Shown here: piece by piece, positions 23,981-33,931 of the stretch
How positions within the stretch are numbered: the stretch's first letter is position 1
Layout of the letters: every line of letters begins with the position of its first letter
Source of the DNA: a virus
DNA: 64,000 nt
Virus record (IMG/VR): IMGVR_UViG_3300042691_028844
Span: 1-64,000 of that record
Reading direction: 5' to 3' (one strand)
Translations under genes and position numbers: made by a program
The notes under the pieces: model-generated
The model's database searches: none
What the model was told of the DNA's origin: nothing
Seen by the model: only the letters and a program-made list of their open reading frames with translations

Positions 23981-24010
23981 ATTGTGTGAGTTGGCCCCGC
24001 GTTAGCGGGT
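23981..24010 (-). repeat. Intergenic hairpin repeat, copy 3
   Basis: Near-identical to 22330-22358; contains the stop codon of 24002-24193. Confidence 0.85.
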
Positions 24011-24193
24011 GATAACCGTGTCGCCGTTATCCTCAATCTGAGAAGTTATAACTGTGCGCCCACAAAGTGCATTGTATGCTGCGGGGCACTCGCGCATAAG
24101 AATCCTGCGCAAATCCTGCGACATGTGGTAAGACATTGTGCGCAGGAGAATCTCTTTGTGGTAGTAGGAGATCTGGTCAAAGTTGCTGCTCAT
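24002..24193 (-). CDS. Small hypothetical early protein
   Basis: ORF track. Confidence 0.65.
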   Translation of the reverse strand: MSSNFDQISYYHKEILLRTMSYHMSQDLRRILMRECPAAYNALCGRTVITSQIEDNGDTVITR

Positions 24194-24390
24194 CGGTTTG
24201 GATTGCAGGTGTTGGGGATAATCTGGACCGTGGTGATGTTGCCCTCTATAGACAGAAGGGCGTCATCAATCTGTTTGATCTTGTCACCTAACGTTGTATA
24301 AACGTGCGGGTACCCATTAAATAATTGCAGTAATGCTGTGCGATAGTCAATCAAAGCTATGCGAATTGTGGTCGCGTCGATTGTAGTCAT
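24190..24390 (-). CDS. Small hypothetical early protein
   Basis: ORF track. Confidence 0.65.
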   Translation of the reverse strand: MTTIDATTIRIALIDYRTALLQLFNGYPHVYTTLGDKIKQIDDALLSIEGNITTVQIIPNTCNPNR

Positions 24391-24421
24391 GGCGGTGAAT
24401 GATGATAGTAATTTGATGCAG

Positions 24422-24592
24422 TCAGTCTGTAGGTGAGCCTGCTAGAAACTCAGCCTCGCTGATAATCTCTACCCAAGCGTGTGGGAGAGATTCAGCGAAT
24501 GAATCGTAGGCGTCATCAGCTTCTGAATAAGAGTCAAAGTGTGCGAGAGTTTCGTAGCCATAGGGCGAGAGATTAACGATGCGGTAAGACAT
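24422..24592 (-). CDS. Small acidic protein (56 aa)
   Basis: Manual translation MSYRIVNLSPYGYETLAHFDSYSEADDAY... Confidence 0.65.
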   Translation of the reverse strand: MSYRIVNLSPYGYETLAHFDSYSEADDAYDSFAESLPHAWVEIISEAEFLAGSPTD

Positions 24593-24614
24593 GATTCAGA
24601 AAGAATAGGTGAGG

Positions 24615-24773
24615 TTAGGCTTGGTCAGGGTAAATAAGTTTATGCTGTTTAAGCAAGATCATGTGATCGAGTGCGTCACCTAAGGTAGAGCGAACATACT
24701 CATCCTTCAGGCCAGCTAACTCATAGGCTTCGTAAACAGCGCGATAGAGTTCATCGAATTGTGTTTGTATCAT
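24615..24773 (-). CDS. Small protein (52 aa)
   Basis: Manual translation MIQTQFDELYRAVYEAYELAG... Confidence 0.65.
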   Translation of the reverse strand: MIQTQFDELYRAVYEAYELAGLKDEYVRSTLGDALDHMILLKQHKLIYPDQA

Positions 24774-24803
24774 GGTGACAAGATGCAGGGTTAGTTACAG
24801 CAA

Positions 24804-25013
24804 TCAAGTATTCGGTTTGATTAACTTAAACTCCTGAATGTCGTAATAAGCAATAGTGTCTGCACTATAACTACGCAAACGCTTTAACTCATTCTGTGCG
24901 CCGCGATCAGACTTGAACCACTGGTGATTCCATCGGCCGCGAGACTTAACAGCCACGCAATGCGTGGCATTCTTCTCAACTTGGCGACCAGTTGCGAGGG
25001 TAAAAGTGTTCAT
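24804..25013 (-). CDS. Small hypothetical early protein
   Basis: ORF track; start at MNTFTL. Confidence 0.65.
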   Translation of the reverse strand: MNTFTLATGRQVEKNATHCVAVKSRGRWNHQWFKSDRGAQNELKRLRSYSADTIAYYDIQEFKLIKPNT

Positions 25014-25020
25014 GATTAAA

Positions 25021-25290
25021 TCAAACAGACTGACGAAGATGAGAGAAACCGGGCACTTCATGAGCCCAGTCGGGTGAGGGCAACGTGCGCCGCAATTCGT
25101 TATACAAACCCGGCTTAATGTTTATACGTTCCGCATCGTATGCGGCACTGCGCCAGATACCTGGCACTGCATCGCTACCCATGTAGCCTTCATCCCATGC
25201 GGCTATACGTTGCCCTTCATTAACAAGAACATACAGCCGCCGTGGGTTACCATTACGGTCGTTATGTGTGCAAAGATGTTGGAAGTACAT
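25021..25290 (-). CDS. Early protein with DRNGNPRR motif
   Basis: ORF track; start at MYFQHL. Confidence 0.7.
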   Translation of the reverse strand: MYFQHLCTHNDRNGNPRRLYVLVNEGQRIAAWDEGYMGSDAVPGIWRSAAYDAERINIKPGLYNELRRTLPSPDWAHEVPGFSHLRQSV

Positions 25291-26072
25291 GGCAAAAGAT
25301 GCGACGAATTTAGTAAAACAATCAGCGAGAAAGTTTGGCCGATTGTTTACGCGAAAGGTTCGCAGCCTTGCGAGCAATTGCTTCGATTTGCTTAGCAGTC
25401 ATGACGGATCACCTGTTAAAACAATGTGGACGTTGAGAGAGTGAATCTCTCAGGTAAAGTGTAAGTTACACCCTACGGGAGAGAATCACGCTGACAAGAT
25501 AAACGCTAAGATTGATTCAGTGCCATGATCTAATTTAGATCATAACTTGATCCACGATTGGTCTACCTTGTCAGCGGACTAGAAACAATCCGGGATCCCT
25601 CAAAGGATCATCCGGTAATCAAACGGAAAACATAATCGACGCACAGTGTTAGTTACAGCGTACGAATGCAATCGCTGGCAGATAACTAATCCCGCCATCC
25701 TACGGGCGCCGCCGTGGTGAGGGATCAGTGTCCAACGGTCCGCGTACCTGCTCTAAAGACAGATACGCTGGACACAATCAGTACAATGTAACTAACACTG
25801 TGCGCTGATAATGTGTACGGTGCGACCCATACATTGCGCAGCTAGTTACAGGGAACGACCCTGCAGATCAGTTGTAGTTACAACGTGCCCACTGATAATG
25901 CGTGACATAGATACAGAGCGTGAGTAGATAGGGTTCGCCTATCGGACAGTGTGACCCACGGTTATACCTTGCGGGGGAACTTCCGCGCCCGCTTCATCAC
26001 TTAAGTATGAAATAGTTAGCTATTGTGTCGGCTACCCGTGCTAACCCGCACACACATAACTAAACTATTTAA

Positions 26073-26084
26073 TTGTCAAGGTTC
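26073..26084 (-). promoter_or_regulatory. boxA-like element GAACCTTGACAA
   Basis: Matches cyanobacterial rrn boxA. Confidence 0.6.
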
Positions 26085-26220
26085 GTCAACCTAGTTACCT
26101 ACTACAACTCCCGCCGCTCACGTTCGGTTACACCATGCCTGCCATCGCCTACGTTTCGGGGAAGAGCTCCCTACCATCGGCGGCACGCGTGGCGACCGTT
26201 CGGCCATCGCGGGGTTGATT

Positions 26221-26257
26221 CAGTTTTCAAGGTTCAACCGATCGGGTTTCGATCAGT
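26221..26257 (-). promoter_or_regulatory. boxB-like hairpin followed by boxA GAACCTTGAAAACTG
   Basis: 8-bp stem 26237-26257 directly upstream of the cyanobacterial boxA consensus. Confidence 0.7.
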
Positions 26258-26263
26258 GAGCAC

Positions 26264-26293
26264 AGCATCGCCCCGATCTGGTCCGTCCGTCAA
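26264..26293 (-). promoter_or_regulatory. Putative early promoter TTGACG-N18-GATGCT
   Basis: Predicted TSS falls on the first base of the boxB-like stem; -10 is imperfect. Confidence 0.45.
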
Positions 26294-26387
26294 CCCTTTC
26301 CACTAGGTACAAATACCTATTCTTCTATAAGCGTAGCTAATGGTACAGGTGTCCTAGTCTGCCAGGGTCCTTCTCCAGTAGGAGGAA

Positions 26388-26467
26388 ACGCACGCACGCA
26401 CACACACACACGCACACGCACACACGCACACACGCACACACGCACACACACACGCGAGCGCGCGCGT
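26388..26467. repeat. Alternating purine-pyrimidine (CA/CG) tract, about 80 bp
   Basis: Read directly; single interruption at 26457. Confidence 0.9.
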
Positions 26468-26792
26468 TAAATAAAACTACCTACCCCCTCAGTATTGTAT
26501 AACAATAGAGTTGTTGTAGCCTACTCCTTGTGTGTTAGTTATACTCAGTGCTAAGTATAAAGAATAGCGAACGCTAAGTGTATAGCTTATGCTTACTGTC
26601 CGTGTTGGTCGCAAGGTCCTTTTTTTTATATAGCGCGCTTACTCGTCGGCGTGGGCGAGAAGGGTCTGGTAATTTTCTGGGTAAATTGGGGGGCGTAGTT
26701 TTGAGTGACAGCATATTGACAGATGCTTCACAAAAATTTTTTCGCCGCGTGGTTTTTGCTTTAGACTTATTCCACGCCGCGCAGAGTACGGA

Positions 26793-27014
26793 ATGTACTA
26801 CAGAGATCAGGTTGTAACAGGGCCAGAATTACTGGAAGAGTACATTGCGCAGGTTACTCCTCGTATTGTTCGTAATATCTACTCTGGGTACAGTGGTGAA
26901 CCGCATATTATTACGCCTGGGGACAAATTAAATATGTTGATGGATTACCGTGATGTTATAGATCACGACGCGAATACTTTGCGTCAGGTTTTAGGCCCTA
27001 TTCAAGCTCCTTGA
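26793..27014 (+). CDS. Small hypothetical protein
   Basis: ORF track; TAGACT upstream. Confidence 0.65.
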   Translation: MYYRDQVVTGPELLEEYIAQVTPRIVRNIYSGYSGEPHIITPGDKLNMLMDYRDVIDHDANTLRQVLGPIQAP

Positions 27015-27018
27015 TACC

Positions 27019-27225
27019 ATGTCTATCTTCAAAGAAGAGGATGCTGCCTTAGGTAAGATCCCTTTTAGCGCAATGGTTCGGAAATACGGGCCTGAGTTAG
27101 CTCTTGCGGGTTACTTCGAGGAGCTTACAGACGCCCCTGACGAGCCTCCGTCACCGATTGCGACAGCTTTCTTACGCAAGTACCTGTCTGAGCTACCGTC
27201 GGAGGACGCTCCTTCTTTCGGGTAA
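27019..27225 (+). CDS. Small acidic protein (FLxxYL motif)
   Basis: ORF track. Confidence 0.65.
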   Translation: MSIFKEEDAALGKIPFSAMVRKYGPELALAGYFEELTDAPDEPPSPIATAFLRKYLSELPSEDAPSFG

Positions 27226-27237
27226 AGCGTTTTCCGG

Positions 27238-27311
<74 letters not shown>

Positions 27312-27431
27312 TTAGAGCTTCTTTTGTCGTGTCGGGTTATTCCACTCCCGCGCCACGGAAGGGTGTTCAGGGCGTGTGTTTATCGCAGATACGAAGCTTC
27401 ATTTAGACTAAAACAAGCTCGATTTTCACTT

Positions 27432-27758
27432 GTGACTTATTATTCGCCCGATTATGCGCGTTACAACGACCCTGAAGGCTCTTATGGAGTTCCGGATGAG
27501 CTGGGGCCTGTACTCAGGGCTGACCCTAAGTCTTTTCTGTTTGATTACTTGAATAAGAACCTTATTCAAGGACCTCCAGAGAACATAGATATTTATGAGC
27601 AAGAAATGTATAGAGAAGACTCTTCCCCTTCTTTTAAATTAGAGCCGTCTAAATTAGACTTACGCGAATTTAGGGACCCTAGAGCTCCCGTTACTCCTCG
27701 TGAATTTCTAGATCGCGATAAGTTTTTACTTTTGAGCCCTAGGAGTCCCTTGACCTGA
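27432..27758 (+). CDS. Small acidic protein (FLxxYL motif)
   Basis: ORF track; GTG start at 27432 after TAGACT. Confidence 0.65.
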   Translation: MTYYSPDYARYNDPEGSYGVPDELGPVLRADPKSFLFDYLNKNLIQGPPENIDIYEQEMYREDSSPSFKLEPSKLDLREFRDPRAPVTPREFLDRDKFLLLSPRSPLT

Positions 27759-28115
27759 CATTGATTCAAGGTGAAAAAAGATACATTCAGGAAAATCTGC
27801 AAAAAACTTAAGTGTAGCGGGGCATAACCAACCTCTAAGTTCGTCTTTTTGCTCTGCTTGTAAGGCGTACCATGCTCCCCCATGCTCGTTTTTATCTCTT
27901 TTTAAGTGTGTTTTGCAATTAGGGAACATTTCTGAGCTAAAAATGATCCTGTACTTGTTTTCCGTGTTCTGTGACGGCAGGCTTTCGATCATGTAATCGA
28001 CGATTTCAGGCGTTCCGAGGACAAACGGCTCGTGAATCAAGCCTCGTTTTTCGTCTGTGAAGCACCATGTGTCGGCGTATCGGTAGATTTCTACCGTCAT
28101 CATGCTGTTAGACAA
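27726..28115 (-). CDS. Conserved hypothetical protein (DUF6717-like)
   Basis: W.F.D..RGL..EPFV.G...GGAWY...GWLCPA pattern. Confidence 0.65.
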   Translation of the reverse strand: MSNSMMTVEIYRYADTWCFTDEKRGLIHEPFVLGTPEIVDYMIESLPSQNTENKYRIIFSSEMFPNCKTHLKRDKNEHGGAWYALQAEQKDELRGWLCPATLKFFADFPECIFFHLESMSGQGTPRAQK

Positions 28116-28217: not shown

Positions 28218-31200
28218 GTGCCTTCTCCACTTAATACAGAGACTTTACGTAAGGCTCTAGACGCTTATTCAGAGTATGGGGACGTTAATCCTTACTCCCA
28301 AGACGACGCTCGTGATGCGTTAGTTGATCGTGCTCTCAATCAAGGGTTTTTAGATGACTATATCGAAGAAGAGATAAGGACAAATCGCGAGTACAATGAT
28401 CCTGATTACGATCCCGATGATTATATTGGACCCGAAGAAGTAGAGGCTTATAGGAGGAGAGTTGATTCGAGCGATTTTCCAGATAGAGTTCCGTTTTCTG
28501 AAGATGTCAGCATAGACCCTGATCTAGAAGAGTATAACGTTTATAACTTTGTAAACCAGAACCCTAAAGCTAGAGAGTACTTTACGAATCAGACTATAAA
28601 CATACGCGGCACAGATGCGGGGGATCGGTTTCTTCGGGCTTTACGTGCGGGCTCTTTTACTCCTGAACAGTTAAGGACTCTTCGAACCGTACGCTTTGCA
28701 GGTAATTCTGACGTATTAGAAAACACTAGAGACTATGATGCTGCCACGGAGGCAGCTAATTTTGTAAATCAGAATGCTACCGGGCGTAGCGATATTCCTT
28801 CAATTGAGCCTGTTTATGAGAACACTGCCGAAGCTTTAAATCAAATACAGGATTTAGAGTCTATTGCGGCTCGAGTGAATGCGTATTCTGAGGATATTGC
28901 TACCACTCAGAATCGACTCCAAAATATCAGCCCTAGCAATGCTTCGTTGGCGAGTCTGTACGAGTCTGCTCCCCGGAGCCTAACTTCTCGTCAGCTTGCT
29001 TTACCGCTTGAAGTTGATCCATACGGGGATCGGGTTAATGAGTTTGCTTCTCGCATTCAATCCCTACCTTTGTCTTTTAACACTGTTGCAGAGTTAACTG
29101 ACGCTACTAATCGTTTGTCCTCGATTCAACGAGATCTTGGTGGGTTAGTTAGTCAAATAACTCATCCTAGTGAGCGTGCTAGAGCGTTTATTGCGGAGAC
29201 AGTGTTACCGCAAGTCGAACAAGCGCTCGGCCCGTATGGGGTTCAGCGTGCTACGCGTCGAGCGTTTGAGGAAAGTCGAGGGGCTTCAATGGACGCCGCT
29301 CGGGAGGAAGACGCTAGGCGTGAGTACTTCAATCTTCTTCGGCGGCAGGACTCAGCGGACCGTGTGCCAACTGCTCCCCCAGCGGATAGAACGCCGCAGG
29401 TTCAGGTTCTTGAGTCGTCCCAAGGTATGGAGCCTATACCTGGATTGAATGCGGCTATTCAAAAGGATCGTTTAGAAGCTATTAAACGAGTTGTTTCCCA
29501 GTATCCAGAAGTTGAACGGCTATTAGCCAGCGCACCTAAGGACCCGCAACGGCGTCCTCTTCGTGGTCCGTCTGTTAAAGAGTATCTACCTTATGTAGAC
29601 AGGGAGCAGGTTATTTCATTGCCGGAGCAGCGAAAAGCTATATACGACGTATTGTTAAATAGTGATGCAGAATTTGTTAACAACCCTGCACTAGGTCGGA
29701 GTTTTGTAGATGATGTTGAATCACTCTACACTAGCGGTAATACTGAACTACAGCAAAACGCTTTACAGCAGTTAGACACCCGTGGTTACGGTGACGCCAT
29801 GCGTGCTGTCTCCGCTCCCGCGACATACCCAACTCGGCCAATCGTCGGCGGTGGTAAGTACATCCGTACGAATGATCCTTCCAGTGGTCCGGAAGTGGCC
29901 GCAATGGTGAAGAAAATTCGCAACCGGGCGGAGGCTCTTGACCGTGCTCTCCCACGGTCGGAAGCTCTCTTGCGGGAGGCTTATCCTAATTTTTCGACGC
30001 GGCCGGATACTGTACGAAAGTTAGAGTTAAATTATGACCCTGATACCGATTCCGTCTCTTTACCTGAACCTGGGGAAAGAGGGCAGTACGGGATTGATGT
30101 GAGTACCGGTACCCCTCGGTTGAATCCGCTTTCGGCGCTCAGCTCTATGCCGAACAATGTTTCTCTCAATGCGCTTCGGTTCCTCGCGGATAATCCTGTT
30201 CTGGGAACTGCATCTGTTTCTTTCATGACTAAGGGACCTGGCCCTGGCCAGGGGTACAGCTACGAACCGAAAGAGTTGCCTTCGGCTGTTTCCGACGCCT
30301 TTGGGCGATTTGCTCAAGGTAAAGCTTTAGAAGGTTTGCCTCCGGGTACACTCGTGAGCAACTCCCCCCTCAAGTCCCGAGACATCGTTGAACAAAAAAA
30401 GCGCGAAGGGCGCACGGCTGACACAAGTTCCACGCTGCGTAAGCTTGAGCCGTTTATTGACGCTAGGCAACAGCTTCCCAACATCCGTGGCGCAGCTTAT
30501 CAAACTGCCGGGTTTGGGCCTTATACAGCAGAAGGTAATCAGCTTGCGTACATCGACGCAAATGGGCAAGTCGTACCGCTGCAATTGACTCGGCCTGAGG
30601 CAGGTTTGGCGGGATCTGTTCGTATGGACCGCAGTAGAAATACGACTGAGGTTGGGCAGGGAAGATTGCCTTTAACTACAAAGTCGTATTATTCCATTCC
30701 CCCTGAAGTTATTGCTGCCAAAGGTCTGCAAGAACTTGGCCGAGGCATCAGACAAACTCCGTCTGCGTTGTTGCCTGGTGCTGCTGATTTAATTCCTAGC
30801 CCCGAAGCTATACAAACGGGGTATCGCGAGGGTCCCGTAGCGATGGGCAGGCAGATGGCGCAAGAGTATGCGCAGAGTCTCCCTTCCGCCGTGGCGGCTG
30901 CAGGAGTTTTAGCGACACCGGCTGCGGCTCCCCTTGCTCCGGGAATTGGCGTGGGCATGGTCGGCACCGCTGCTGCCCGAGCTGTGAATGAGGTTGTTCG
31001 CCAACAGACTGGCGAAGGTATCGTTCCCAAACTTCGTCAAGCTCTTGGTACGGCTCCAAGAAGCGGAGTGGCGTCGCCACAACGTACGACGCCCAGGCCG
31101 TTAACAGCCAGCATTCAAGCCCTAACTCCTGCTCAGCGGGTTGAGATGAGCCGGCGGCAGAATCGAAATGAGTTACAACGTAGAGTTGACTTAGCTAAAG

Positions 31201-31259
31201 AAAGGTTTAACCCAGCTAGATTGGAGTTTGGACTCTCTGAGTTATTCCGTGGAAGGTGA
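28218..31259 (+). CDS. Large (1013 aa) protein, possibly internal virion/ejection protein
   Basis: ORF track; function inferred from composition only. Confidence 0.75.
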   Translation: MPSPLNTETLRKALDAYSEYGDVNPYSQDDARDALVDRALNQGFLDDYIEEEIRTNREYNDPDYDPDDYIGPEEVEAYRRRVDSSDFPDRVPFSEDVSIDPDLEEYNVYNFVNQNPKAREYFTNQTINIRGTDAGDRFLRALRAGSFTPEQLRTLRTVRFAGNSDVLENTRDYDAATEAANFVNQNATGRSDIPSIEPVYENTAEALNQIQDLESIAARVNAYSEDIATTQNRLQNISPSNASLASLYESAPRSLTSRQLALPLEVDPYGDRVNEFASRIQSLPLSFNTVAELTDATNRLSSIQRDLGGLVSQITHPSERARAFIAETVLPQVEQALGPYGVQRATRRAFEESRGASMDAAREEDARREYFNLLRRQDSADRVPTAPPADRTPQVQVLESSQGMEPIPGLNAAIQKDRLEAIKRVVSQYPEVERLLASAPKDPQRRPLRGPSVKEYLPYVDREQVISLPEQRKAIYDVLLNSDAEFVNNPALGRSFVDDVESLYTSGNTELQQNALQQLDTRGYGDAMRAVSAPATYPTRPIVGGGKYIRTNDPSSGPEVAAMVKKIRNRAEALDRALPRSEALLREAYPNFSTRPDTVRKLELNYDPDTDSVSLPEPGERGQYGIDVSTGTPRLNPLSALSSMPNNVSLNALRFLADNPVLGTASVSFMTKGPGPGQGYSYEPKELPSAVSDAFGRFAQGKALEGLPPGTLVSNSPLKSRDIVEQKKREGRTADTSSTLRKLEPFIDARQQLPNIRGAAYQTAGFGPYTAEGNQLAYIDANGQVVPLQLTRPEAGLAGSVRMDRSRNTTEVGQGRLPLTTKSYYSIPPEVIAAKGLQELGRGIRQTPSALLPGAADLIPSPEAIQTGYREGPVAMGRQMAQEYAQSLPSAVAAAGVLATPAAAPLAPGIGVGMVGTAAARAVNEVVRQQTGEGIVPKLRQALGTAPRSGVASPQRTTPRPLTASIQALTPAQRVEMSRRQNRNELQRRVDLAKERFNPARLEFGLSELFRGR

Positions 31260-33770: not shown

Positions 33771-33846
33771 GCGCGTCTAGCAATCTGGTGAATGCAGCGA
33801 ACTCATAATTCGCCTAAGGTGGGTTCAATTCCCTCGACGCGCACCA
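33771..33846 (+). tRNA. tRNA with CAT anticodon (elongator Met or Ile2), CCA encoded
   Basis: GCGCGTC/GACGCGC acceptor; loop CTCATAA; lacks initiator features. Confidence 0.88.
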
Positions 33847-33931
33847 GCCCTGGTGGTGGAATCGGTAGACACAACAGACTTAAAATCTGTCGGCCATTGC
33901 GGTTGTGCGAGTTCAAGTCTCGCTCAGGGCA
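33847..33931 (+). tRNA. trnL: tRNA-Leu(TAA)
   Basis: Loop CTTAAAA; long variable arm; abuts previous tRNA. Confidence 0.93.

Follow-up and report, generated by a model that had tools for sequence, protein, structure and literature searches.

Comparative evidence for a large, multi-domain structured RNA at the head of a viral early operon

What does a gene-poor gap of more than a kilobase between two divergent viral operons encode? The question is raised by the first 64,000 nucleotides (nt), hereafter the window, of the IMG/VR virus record IMGVR_UViG_3300042691_028844, which comprises 86,580 base pairs (bp) and is rated complete by CheckV. A gap of 1.39 kb, poor in open reading frames (ORFs), separates the operons at 25404-26792. 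Within it, an earlier note had described the stretch 25441-26257 as a highly structured, ORF-free region and interpreted it as an undescribed RNA class or a giant 5′ leader. The observation is confirmed by the analysis reported here and the interpretation is supported. On balance, we consider it probable that the minus strand from 26257 to 25433 encodes a structured RNA of ~0.8 kb, built of several domains and heading the leftward early transcript, with boxA elements that would load host Nus factors and a 3′ hairpin, H1, at which the transcript would be cleaved.

Comparative evidence for domains B and D and hairpin H1

The case for a structured RNA is carried by comparative evidence more than by folding energy. 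Compensatory changes in excess of the controls were found in three elements:

25622-25823, minus strand: domain B, based on covariation in alignments A2 and A3 and on covariance model R1.
26085-26223, minus strand: core of domain D, nested helices with conserved internal loops (the GAUGGUAGGGAG hairpin and two CCGAAC loops), based on the A4 consensus.
25433-25489, minus strand: 3′ hairpin motif H1, in which GAUUCUCUCC and GAGAGAUUCA pair as the outer stem around a variable inner stem-loop, with a UCUCUC segment downstream, based on alignment A5 and model R2.

Homologues of the gap were gathered by two routes. With a 398-amino-acid protein encoded 5 kb away as the query, 52 related viral loci were obtained, and nhmmer located the gap, whole or in large part, in 19 of them. 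A DNA pattern for domain B added 60 metagenome loci; 43 were left after sequences at least 97% alike had been dropped. Gap homologues are 46-59% identical to the window in the joint alignment. Since the small flanking genes vary among the phages that share the gap, the gap is better conserved than its neighbours. Both anchors could be located in 28 of 43 loci, for which the predicted RNA has a median length of 774 nt (603-973).

Domain B is closed by a long helix with an invariant 11-bp core (GUUAGUUACAG/CUGUAACUAAC), an outer helix and an inner extension. Enclosed by these is a three-way junction bearing a hairpin of 14 bp, together with an arm that ends in a hairpin and whose internal loop, CAC / CGAUGGC, is conserved; the same architecture is seen in single-sequence folds of 46 homologues. 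Early RNAalifold runs on gappy alignments recovered nothing for domain D and only part of domain B, and a column-wise helix search on A2 recovered little beyond the invariant core. As the variable hairpins lie out of register in such a search, the fold of homologue L169 was projected onto the plain MAFFT alignment A2 and a covariance model was used. In A2 (46 sequences) 73.4% of cells are paired, against 63.4% when shuffled, with a covariation score of 0.301 (0.154 shuffled, 0.119 in the best slid control) and both-side changes in 51 of the 69 domain B pairs. The corresponding values for A3 (44 sequences), which leans towards structure because it was fitted to R1, are 78.4% against 64.0%, a score of 0.396 (0.160 shuffled, 0.121 best slid control) and 53 of 69 pairs. 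Not one of 500 shuffles matched the observed pairing or covariation score in either alignment.

The covariance model also distinguishes the strands. With R1, the minus strand of the window scores 141.9 bits and the plus strand 31.5 bits; across loci the scores are 90-190 bits for the RNA strand and 26-44 bits for its complement. Domain B is recovered by R1 on the RNA strand from 23 of 99 sources, with E at most 5.9e-18, and from 44 of the 46 non-redundant loci. The earlier note had remarked that A-C mismatches on the plus strand become G-U pairs on the minus strand, and this holds among the domain B homologues, whose paired cells contain 265 GU/UG against 109 AC/CA combinations, as counted on an alignment that was fitted to the minus-strand model and is biased towards G-U. 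This excess favours the minus strand.

Domain D as a whole extends from ~26256 to 26073, and the folds of 25 homologues agree. Its structure is the RNAalifold consensus of 15 homologues, counted on all 25 (A4), where 79.1% of cells are paired against 68.4% when shuffled. The covariation score is 0.281 (0.138 shuffled, at most 0.112 slid), both sides change in 35 of 57 pairs, and the observed values were matched by none of 500 shuffles. Seven of the sequences share the central hairpin but differ in the outer part, and form a second subtype. A search of 185,579 bacterial and archaeal species genomes gave no match to the domain D core pattern. Covariation, which the earlier note had proposed as a check on its claim, is thereby found in two domains, B and D, far above both the shuffled and the slid controls.

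The arm pattern of H1 is matched exactly in 60 IMG/VR loci, ~40 of which share nothing else with the window and three of which look like chance matches. Within A5 (66 sequences), 95.8% of H1 cells are paired against 77.6% when shuffled, and seven inner pairs covary, one of them occurring as AU 31, UA 31, GC 3 and CG 1 times; the outer arms are invariant because the loci were selected by arm match. Furthermore, the UCUCUC segment that follows H1 can pair with the 3′ arm instead, giving an alternative hairpin of at least 5 bp in 65 of the 66 sequences (shuffled tails: mean 43.9, maximum 51). In the divergent relatives L046 and L048 all three segments change in concert. Model R2 matches the window at 25493-25421 (E 3.5e-9).

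In other phages H1 lies directly after stop codons, 25-46 nt before the next start; in the window ~30 nt separate its end from the start codon of the first early gene. Cultured carriers are the Prochlorococcus phages P-SSP6 and P-SSP10 and cyanophage 9515-10a, in which H1 is placed between early genes, upstream of the RNA polymerase gene. R2 detects a single copy each in this genome and in 9515-10a, and three in a contig of 44.6 kb; in S-EIVl it detects none. The motif has RNase III-type geometry, with a 9-bp outer and a 7-8-bp inner stem, nearly coaxial, amounting to about two turns and situated between cistrons. Among the 185,579 bacterial and archaeal species genomes the pattern gave 118 matches, approximately the level estimated for chance, and only one, in a Prochlorococcus single-cell assembly, has the anatomy of H1.

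Two other identities for H1 were considered and rejected. An N4-like hairpin promoter is at odds with the lack of a gene for a giant virion RNA polymerase in this genome and with the position of H1 within operons, after stop codons; a reading as a transfer RNA (tRNA)-like element or ribozyme received no support from ARAGORN or Rfam. A full-text literature search with the H1 arm sequences returned only unrelated primers. The arm pattern also strikes a conserved 51-nt element of unrelated anatomy with a shared inner sequence in Paenibacillaceae (loci L181, L209, L225, L229, L234, L256 and L280, from Paenibacillus and relatives).

Folding of the window sequence itself was examined in parallel. 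Folding energies for the 817 nt are -286.7 kcal/mol (z -7.19) for the plus strand and -331.1 kcal/mol (z -8.86) for the minus strand, relative to 20 shuffles, none of which was as good as the real sequence; when three stretches of coding DNA of the same length were folded as controls, their z values were -3.20, -0.54 and -1.45. The sequence therefore beats its shuffles on both strands, the check by folding z-score that the earlier note had suggested. In scans of 400 nt (plus/minus z), 25257-25656 gave -5.9/-6.5 and 25657-26056 gave -2.8/-4.4; neighbouring coding windows range from +1.5 to -3.9, and the fold signal is mainly in 25257-26056. Given this range, and the weak value for the window that covers domain D (below), thermodynamics alone is a moderate argument.

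The individual stems listed by the earlier note are present in the sequence. That at 25441-25451/25479-25489 was found, as was the one near 25489-25576, whose arms 25489-25504/25561-25576 are 88% complementary and enclose a perfect 9-nt pair, ATGATCTAA/TTAGATCAT. This long stem is peculiar to this phage, 71% of alignment rows being gapped at 25494-25523. The 18-bp stem 25640-25657/25787-25804 is part of a 41-nt arm pair that is 80% complementary, the stem at 25728-25734/25769-25775 recurs as 25728-25737/25766-25775, and the CAGGG/CCCTG, ATCAGT/ACTGAT and GATAGG/CCTATC stems are seen in the window fold.

Promoter, boxA elements and a proposed mechanism

The 5′ end of the predicted RNA is marked by four features:

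26264-26293, minus strand: host-type promoter of the sigma-70 kind, with a -35 element TTGACG (26293-26288), an 18-nt spacer and a -10 element GATGCT (26269-26264), based on conservation in A4.
26238-26256, minus strand: 5′-terminal hairpin, in the position of the boxB of the cyanobacterial ribosomal RNA (rRNA) spacer, helix 1 on A4.
26224-26235, minus strand: boxA copy 1, GAACCTTGAAAA, identical in 12 of 12 bases to the published cyanobacterial boxA.
26073-26084, minus strand: boxA copy 2, GAACCTTGACAA, following a small GGUU/AACC hairpin and ending domain D, based on a match to a host spacer.

Across A4 (25 sequences) TTGAC is conserved to at least 90%, and A and T at positions two and six of the -10 element are invariant; the pattern TTGACN-16..19-NANNNT occurs in 22 of the 25 sequences. 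Placed from the conserved -10 element, transcription would start at ~26257, the end coordinate given in the earlier note. The leftward direction that had been claimed there is agreed upon by the strand signal, the promoter and boxA. In the 5′-terminal hairpin, five of six pairs change on both sides on A4; only 60.7% of its cells are paired because its length varies, and it is also visible in folds of individual homologues.

The sequence of copy 1 is that of the boxA quoted for cyanobacterial 16S-23S spacers in PMC8461337, which credits it to Iteman et al. 2000. Its core, ACCTNGANAA, is invariant in the 25 homologues of A4. Domain D is closed by a long-range helix whose 5′ strand is copy 1 itself, and the variable base of copy 1 covaries with the base it pairs with (AU 8, UA 7). 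In individual folds the strand complementary to copy 1 can pair with copy 2 instead. Copy 2 is identical in 12 of 12 bases to the 16S-23S spacer boxA of a picocyanobacterial genome (G010, from the family of a Prochlorococcus single-cell assembly), where the element lies between the spacer tRNAs and 23S rRNA, with a hairpin before it and CTGCATA after it. Two boxA-like elements are present in 23 of the 25 homologues. The phage element shares three features with an rRNA-operon-type boxA, namely host sequence, a position just after the promoter, and a hairpin between the start and boxA.

These findings suggest the following course of events. Host RNA polymerase would initiate at ~26257, and the boxA elements would load host Nus factors in the fashion of an rRNA operon. 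Nus loading would render transcription fast and resistant to termination, both along the long untranslated RNA and through the ~25 kb of operon that follow, and may also aid the long-range helices in folding. A host nuclease would then cut the transcript at H1, the 3′ hairpin at which the RNA is probably cut off, freeing a stable structured RNA, and the alternative pairing at H1 could provide the downstream messenger RNA (mRNA) with a 5′-terminal hairpin. The order of the unit (promoter, hairpin, boxA, large folded RNA, second boxA, further domains, separating hairpin) fits that of an rRNA operon.

A more specific version of this scheme is doubtful, though it can be clearly stated. It holds that the phage makes a "pseudo-ribosomal" RNA, which copies the antitermination signals of host rRNA, is chaperoned by Nus factors and is released by a hairpin common to cyanophages. 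During the first minutes of infection this RNA would serve as a decoy or scaffold, or would assemble itself into a particle of the ROOL/GOLLD kind. If this were true, ribosomal proteins, RNases or other RNA-binding host factors would be examples of targets.

Rival readings, linker and neighbouring features

Three further features lie between or beyond the elements described above:

25824-26072, minus strand: variable middle region with several hairpins, drawn from the window fold only.
25490-25621, minus strand: linker, with a short hairpin (25590-25615), at least three GATC sites and the window-specific stem 25489-25576, from alignment A6.
25400-25414, minus strand: Shine-Dalgarno sequence AGGUGA and ATG of the first early gene, a basic peptide of 26 amino acids, by sequence reading.

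The middle region varies in length from 108 to 472 nt among homologues, and the basic peptide is kept in two relatives (L004 and L006). At least three GATC sites, mostly 10-11 nt apart, lie between domain B and H1 in 39 of 41 loci; in the window they are found at 25524-25553 and 25594-25610. They could be sites of Dam-type methylation or of protein binding to DNA. A DNA methyltransferase gene lies near H1 in a T7-like cyanophage that carries the hairpin.

The core motif GTGTTAGTTACA of the domain B closing helix and its variants recur in the window at 24788, 25459, 25843, 25871, 26092 and 26532, and seven of the 11 window matches with at most two mismatches fall in 24788-26543. In some relatives the loop of the 14-bp hairpin holds the motif single-stranded. 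The extra copies could permit alternative or intermolecular pairing.

Upstream, between the divergent promoters and 90-170 bp from the leftward one, is a tract of alternating purines and pyrimidines (CA/CG repeats; 69 nt on the minus strand) at 26380-26463, of a composition prone to form Z-DNA. Tracts of at least 20 nt are present in 12 of the 26 relatives having enough upstream sequence. Such repeats gave spurious Rfam matches to microRNA and small nucleolar RNA.

The main rival to a released RNA is a purely cis-acting 5′ leader, whose structures and boxA elements would control elongation, timing, stability or translation of the early operon with no RNA set free. We regard it as possible but not likely. 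The region is contiguous with the first early gene, a scan for intrinsic terminators between the two revealed none that convinces, boxA elements by their nature act in cis, and H1 stops just short of the start codon, with three-segment alternative pairings both at H1 and at boxA. However, known leaders need far less than ~800 nt containing two covarying domains that fold independently and internal loops that are conserved, and the position of H1 elsewhere, between genes and right after a stop codon, suits a processing or insulating element. For the freed RNA, a part in host takeover, either in trans or as a scaffold, is favoured over a purely cis-regulatory one.

The conserved elements might alternatively act as DNA, as a replication origin or as an operator between the divergent promoters, through protein sites, cruciforms and phased GATC. 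The location between divergent operons would suit such a role, as would the invariant 11-bp inverted repeat, the 10-11 nt spacing of GATC sites in 39 of 41 loci, the alternating tract upstream and the clustering of repeat motif copies in 24788-26543. It is nevertheless unlikely, since both-side changes (51/69 and 35/57 pairs) and a G-U excess on one strand are unexpected for duplex DNA sites, and cumulative GC skew has no clear switch here. Of the features of an origin, repeat motifs and phased GATC are present, and neither a clear GC-skew switch nor an AT-rich block was found. DNA cruciforms, which the earlier note had raised as an alternative, may apply to the invariant repeats and the phased GATC sites but cannot explain the compensatory changes; a DNA-level role of the GATC sites or of the repeat core may coexist with the RNA. 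That the region codes for small proteins, such as the 77-amino-acid ORF with a TTG start at 26073-26306 on the plus strand, is extremely improbable. In 15 of 25 homologues one frame or another stays open across 90% or more of domain D, but these frames are on the strand opposite the RNA, two or three at once in the same sequences, and differ from phage to phage. Moreover, a 10-nt insertion at a hairpin tip extends the stem and shifts the frame, Pfam finds no match, and in domain B only two of 44 sequences have such an open frame. Coding and chance were both rejected as explanations of the region.

Several points weigh against the structured, released RNA that we prefer. Nus loading, cleavage at H1 and any function in trans are steps that we infer. 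The sequences are related, R1 has an effective sequence number of 6.4, and the shuffles ignore phylogeny. The invariant 11-bp core gives no evidence for RNA pairing and would fit a DNA site as well. The 400-nt window 26057-26456, which covers domain D and lies half upstream of the predicted start, has an unremarkable z of -1.4/+0.5. RNAalifold on A6 (21 sequences) returned only the invariant GATC/GATC pairing and no compensated pairs, so that RNA structure in the linker (25490-25621) is unsupported; the hairpin at 25590-25615 and its counterparts are visible by eye, but are misaligned in A6 and hence uncounted. In 31 genomes of the Prochlorococcus family the 12-mer boxA pattern gave 54 matches against 37 for the reversed control, a modest enrichment, and one of three inspected host sites is in the rRNA spacer, the other two not being beside rRNA. 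Finally, S-EIVl has a gap of similar size in which the models and comparison reveal neither domain B nor domain D nor H1, and the RNA is therefore dispensable for the lineage.

Transcription data are likewise limited and count on the same side. One metatranscriptome, in which ~7% of the sampled words occur, contains a single 151-nt contig on 25602-25752, with three differences and a depth of 2, which carries no strand information and may be DNA carry-over. Between 24800 and 27400 only the tRNA is otherwise covered, and the missing cover is not evidence of absence. We take the contig as only a hint of transcription.

The genes around the gap are arranged in two directions. Those on the minus strand start with the ATG at 25402 and continue down to the window start, many small ORFs being followed by a MoxR-type ATPase, a family A DNA polymerase and a primase; those on the plus strand begin at 26793 and lead to the portal and other structural genes. 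A single cultured relative came to light, Synechococcus phage S-EIVl, whose portal protein is 45% identical over 78% of its length. Searches of the cultured phages in INPHARED gave no match to the gap (blastn) or to a neighbouring protein of 1013 amino acids (tblastn). The ORF for that protein, at 28218-31259, has 30-37% identity in related contigs and belongs to no Pfam or PHROG family; a search for relatives with the protein as an anchor found none. Genes for tRNA-Arg(TCT), tRNA-Met(CAT) and tRNA-Leu(TAA) are present at 27238-27311 and 33771-33931, the tRNA at 27238-27311 being ~1 kb from the RNA region on the opposite strand.

A further conserved block, at 26604-26723, precedes the rightward genes and can be recognised in S-EIVl too. 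Its components are eight invariant T in a row, a hexamer rich in A/T, a small GC hairpin and GAGAAGG, and it is probably the rightward promoter and leader; a coding reading was rejected, as the open frames differ from phage to phage. In one relative (L094, 3954-3991), past the start of the rightward genes, the Rfam abiF RNA is matched with 38.2 bits (gathering score 37).

Novelty and comparison with known systems

The RNA family and its combination of parts are new, whereas the kinds of component are known: large ornate phage RNAs, boxA antiterminators and intercistronic processing hairpins. Literature searches retrieved no description of the element, and the terms S-EIV1 and noncoding RNA yielded nothing relevant. 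The earlier note had suggested a comparison with Rfam, and cmscan gave no family match for the window or for eight homologous loci. Fremin et al. 2023 (PMC10690425) report 8,495 short structured RNA candidates predicted in IMG/VR, among which H1 or pieces of domains B and D may be included.

Large structured phage RNAs are few, and this element adds a class with clear comparative support and a defined promoter, whose location at the head of the early operon suggests when the RNA acts. The exact copies of host rRNA-type boxA suggest that a cyanophage recruits the host's rRNA transcription machinery for an RNA of its own, a strategy that to our knowledge is undescribed for cyanophages. The occurrence of H1 in unrelated S-EIVl-like and T7-like cyanophages points to a common host factor, and through the hairpin the processing of early mRNA in picocyanobacteria would become accessible to study. 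Phage systems already available for Prochlorococcus and Synechococcus are suited to tests of these three points, at least for H1.

Among known systems, the antiterminator of the cyanobacterial rRNA leader and 16S-23S spacer (boxB hairpin, boxA, D4) has the same 12-nt boxA and the same order of hairpin and boxA. The host spacer continues with CTGCATA after boxA, and the phage bases after copy 1 (CUGAAUC) are similar. As in an rRNA operon, a long structured RNA within a long-range helix follows the phage boxA. Unlike the operon, the element is phage-encoded, has no rRNA downstream and carries copy 1 of boxA itself within a helix.

The nut sites of phage lambda and the put sites of HK022 are RNA elements, tens of nucleotides long, that lie just past early promoters and make the host polymerase resistant to termination; lambda nut holds a boxA and requires the phage N protein. 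The element described here likewise follows an early promoter, but is ~0.8 kb long with a boxA of exactly the host rRNA type, and no N-like gene was found in this phage. With GOLLD and ROOL it shares a size of several hundred nucleotides, a multi-domain build, conserved internal loops and carriage by a phage, with a tRNA ~1 kb away; multimer formation by those RNAs has been shown by cryo-electron microscopy (10.1101/2024.12.08.627333). Unlike them, it forms the 5′ part of an operon behind boxA elements and has no Rfam similarity at E of at most 1. In that search (Rfam 15, cmscan, 24000-28000 of the window and the eight homologous loci), only tRNA, low-complexity matches to the CA repeats and one abiF outside the element were found.

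In phage T7, hairpins between early genes are processed by RNase III. H1 resembles these hairpins in being an irregular hairpin of ~20 bp between early genes, located upstream of the RNA polymerase gene in a T7-like cyanophage. It differs from them in a third segment with an alternative pairing and in an arm sequence that is conserved across unrelated phage families.

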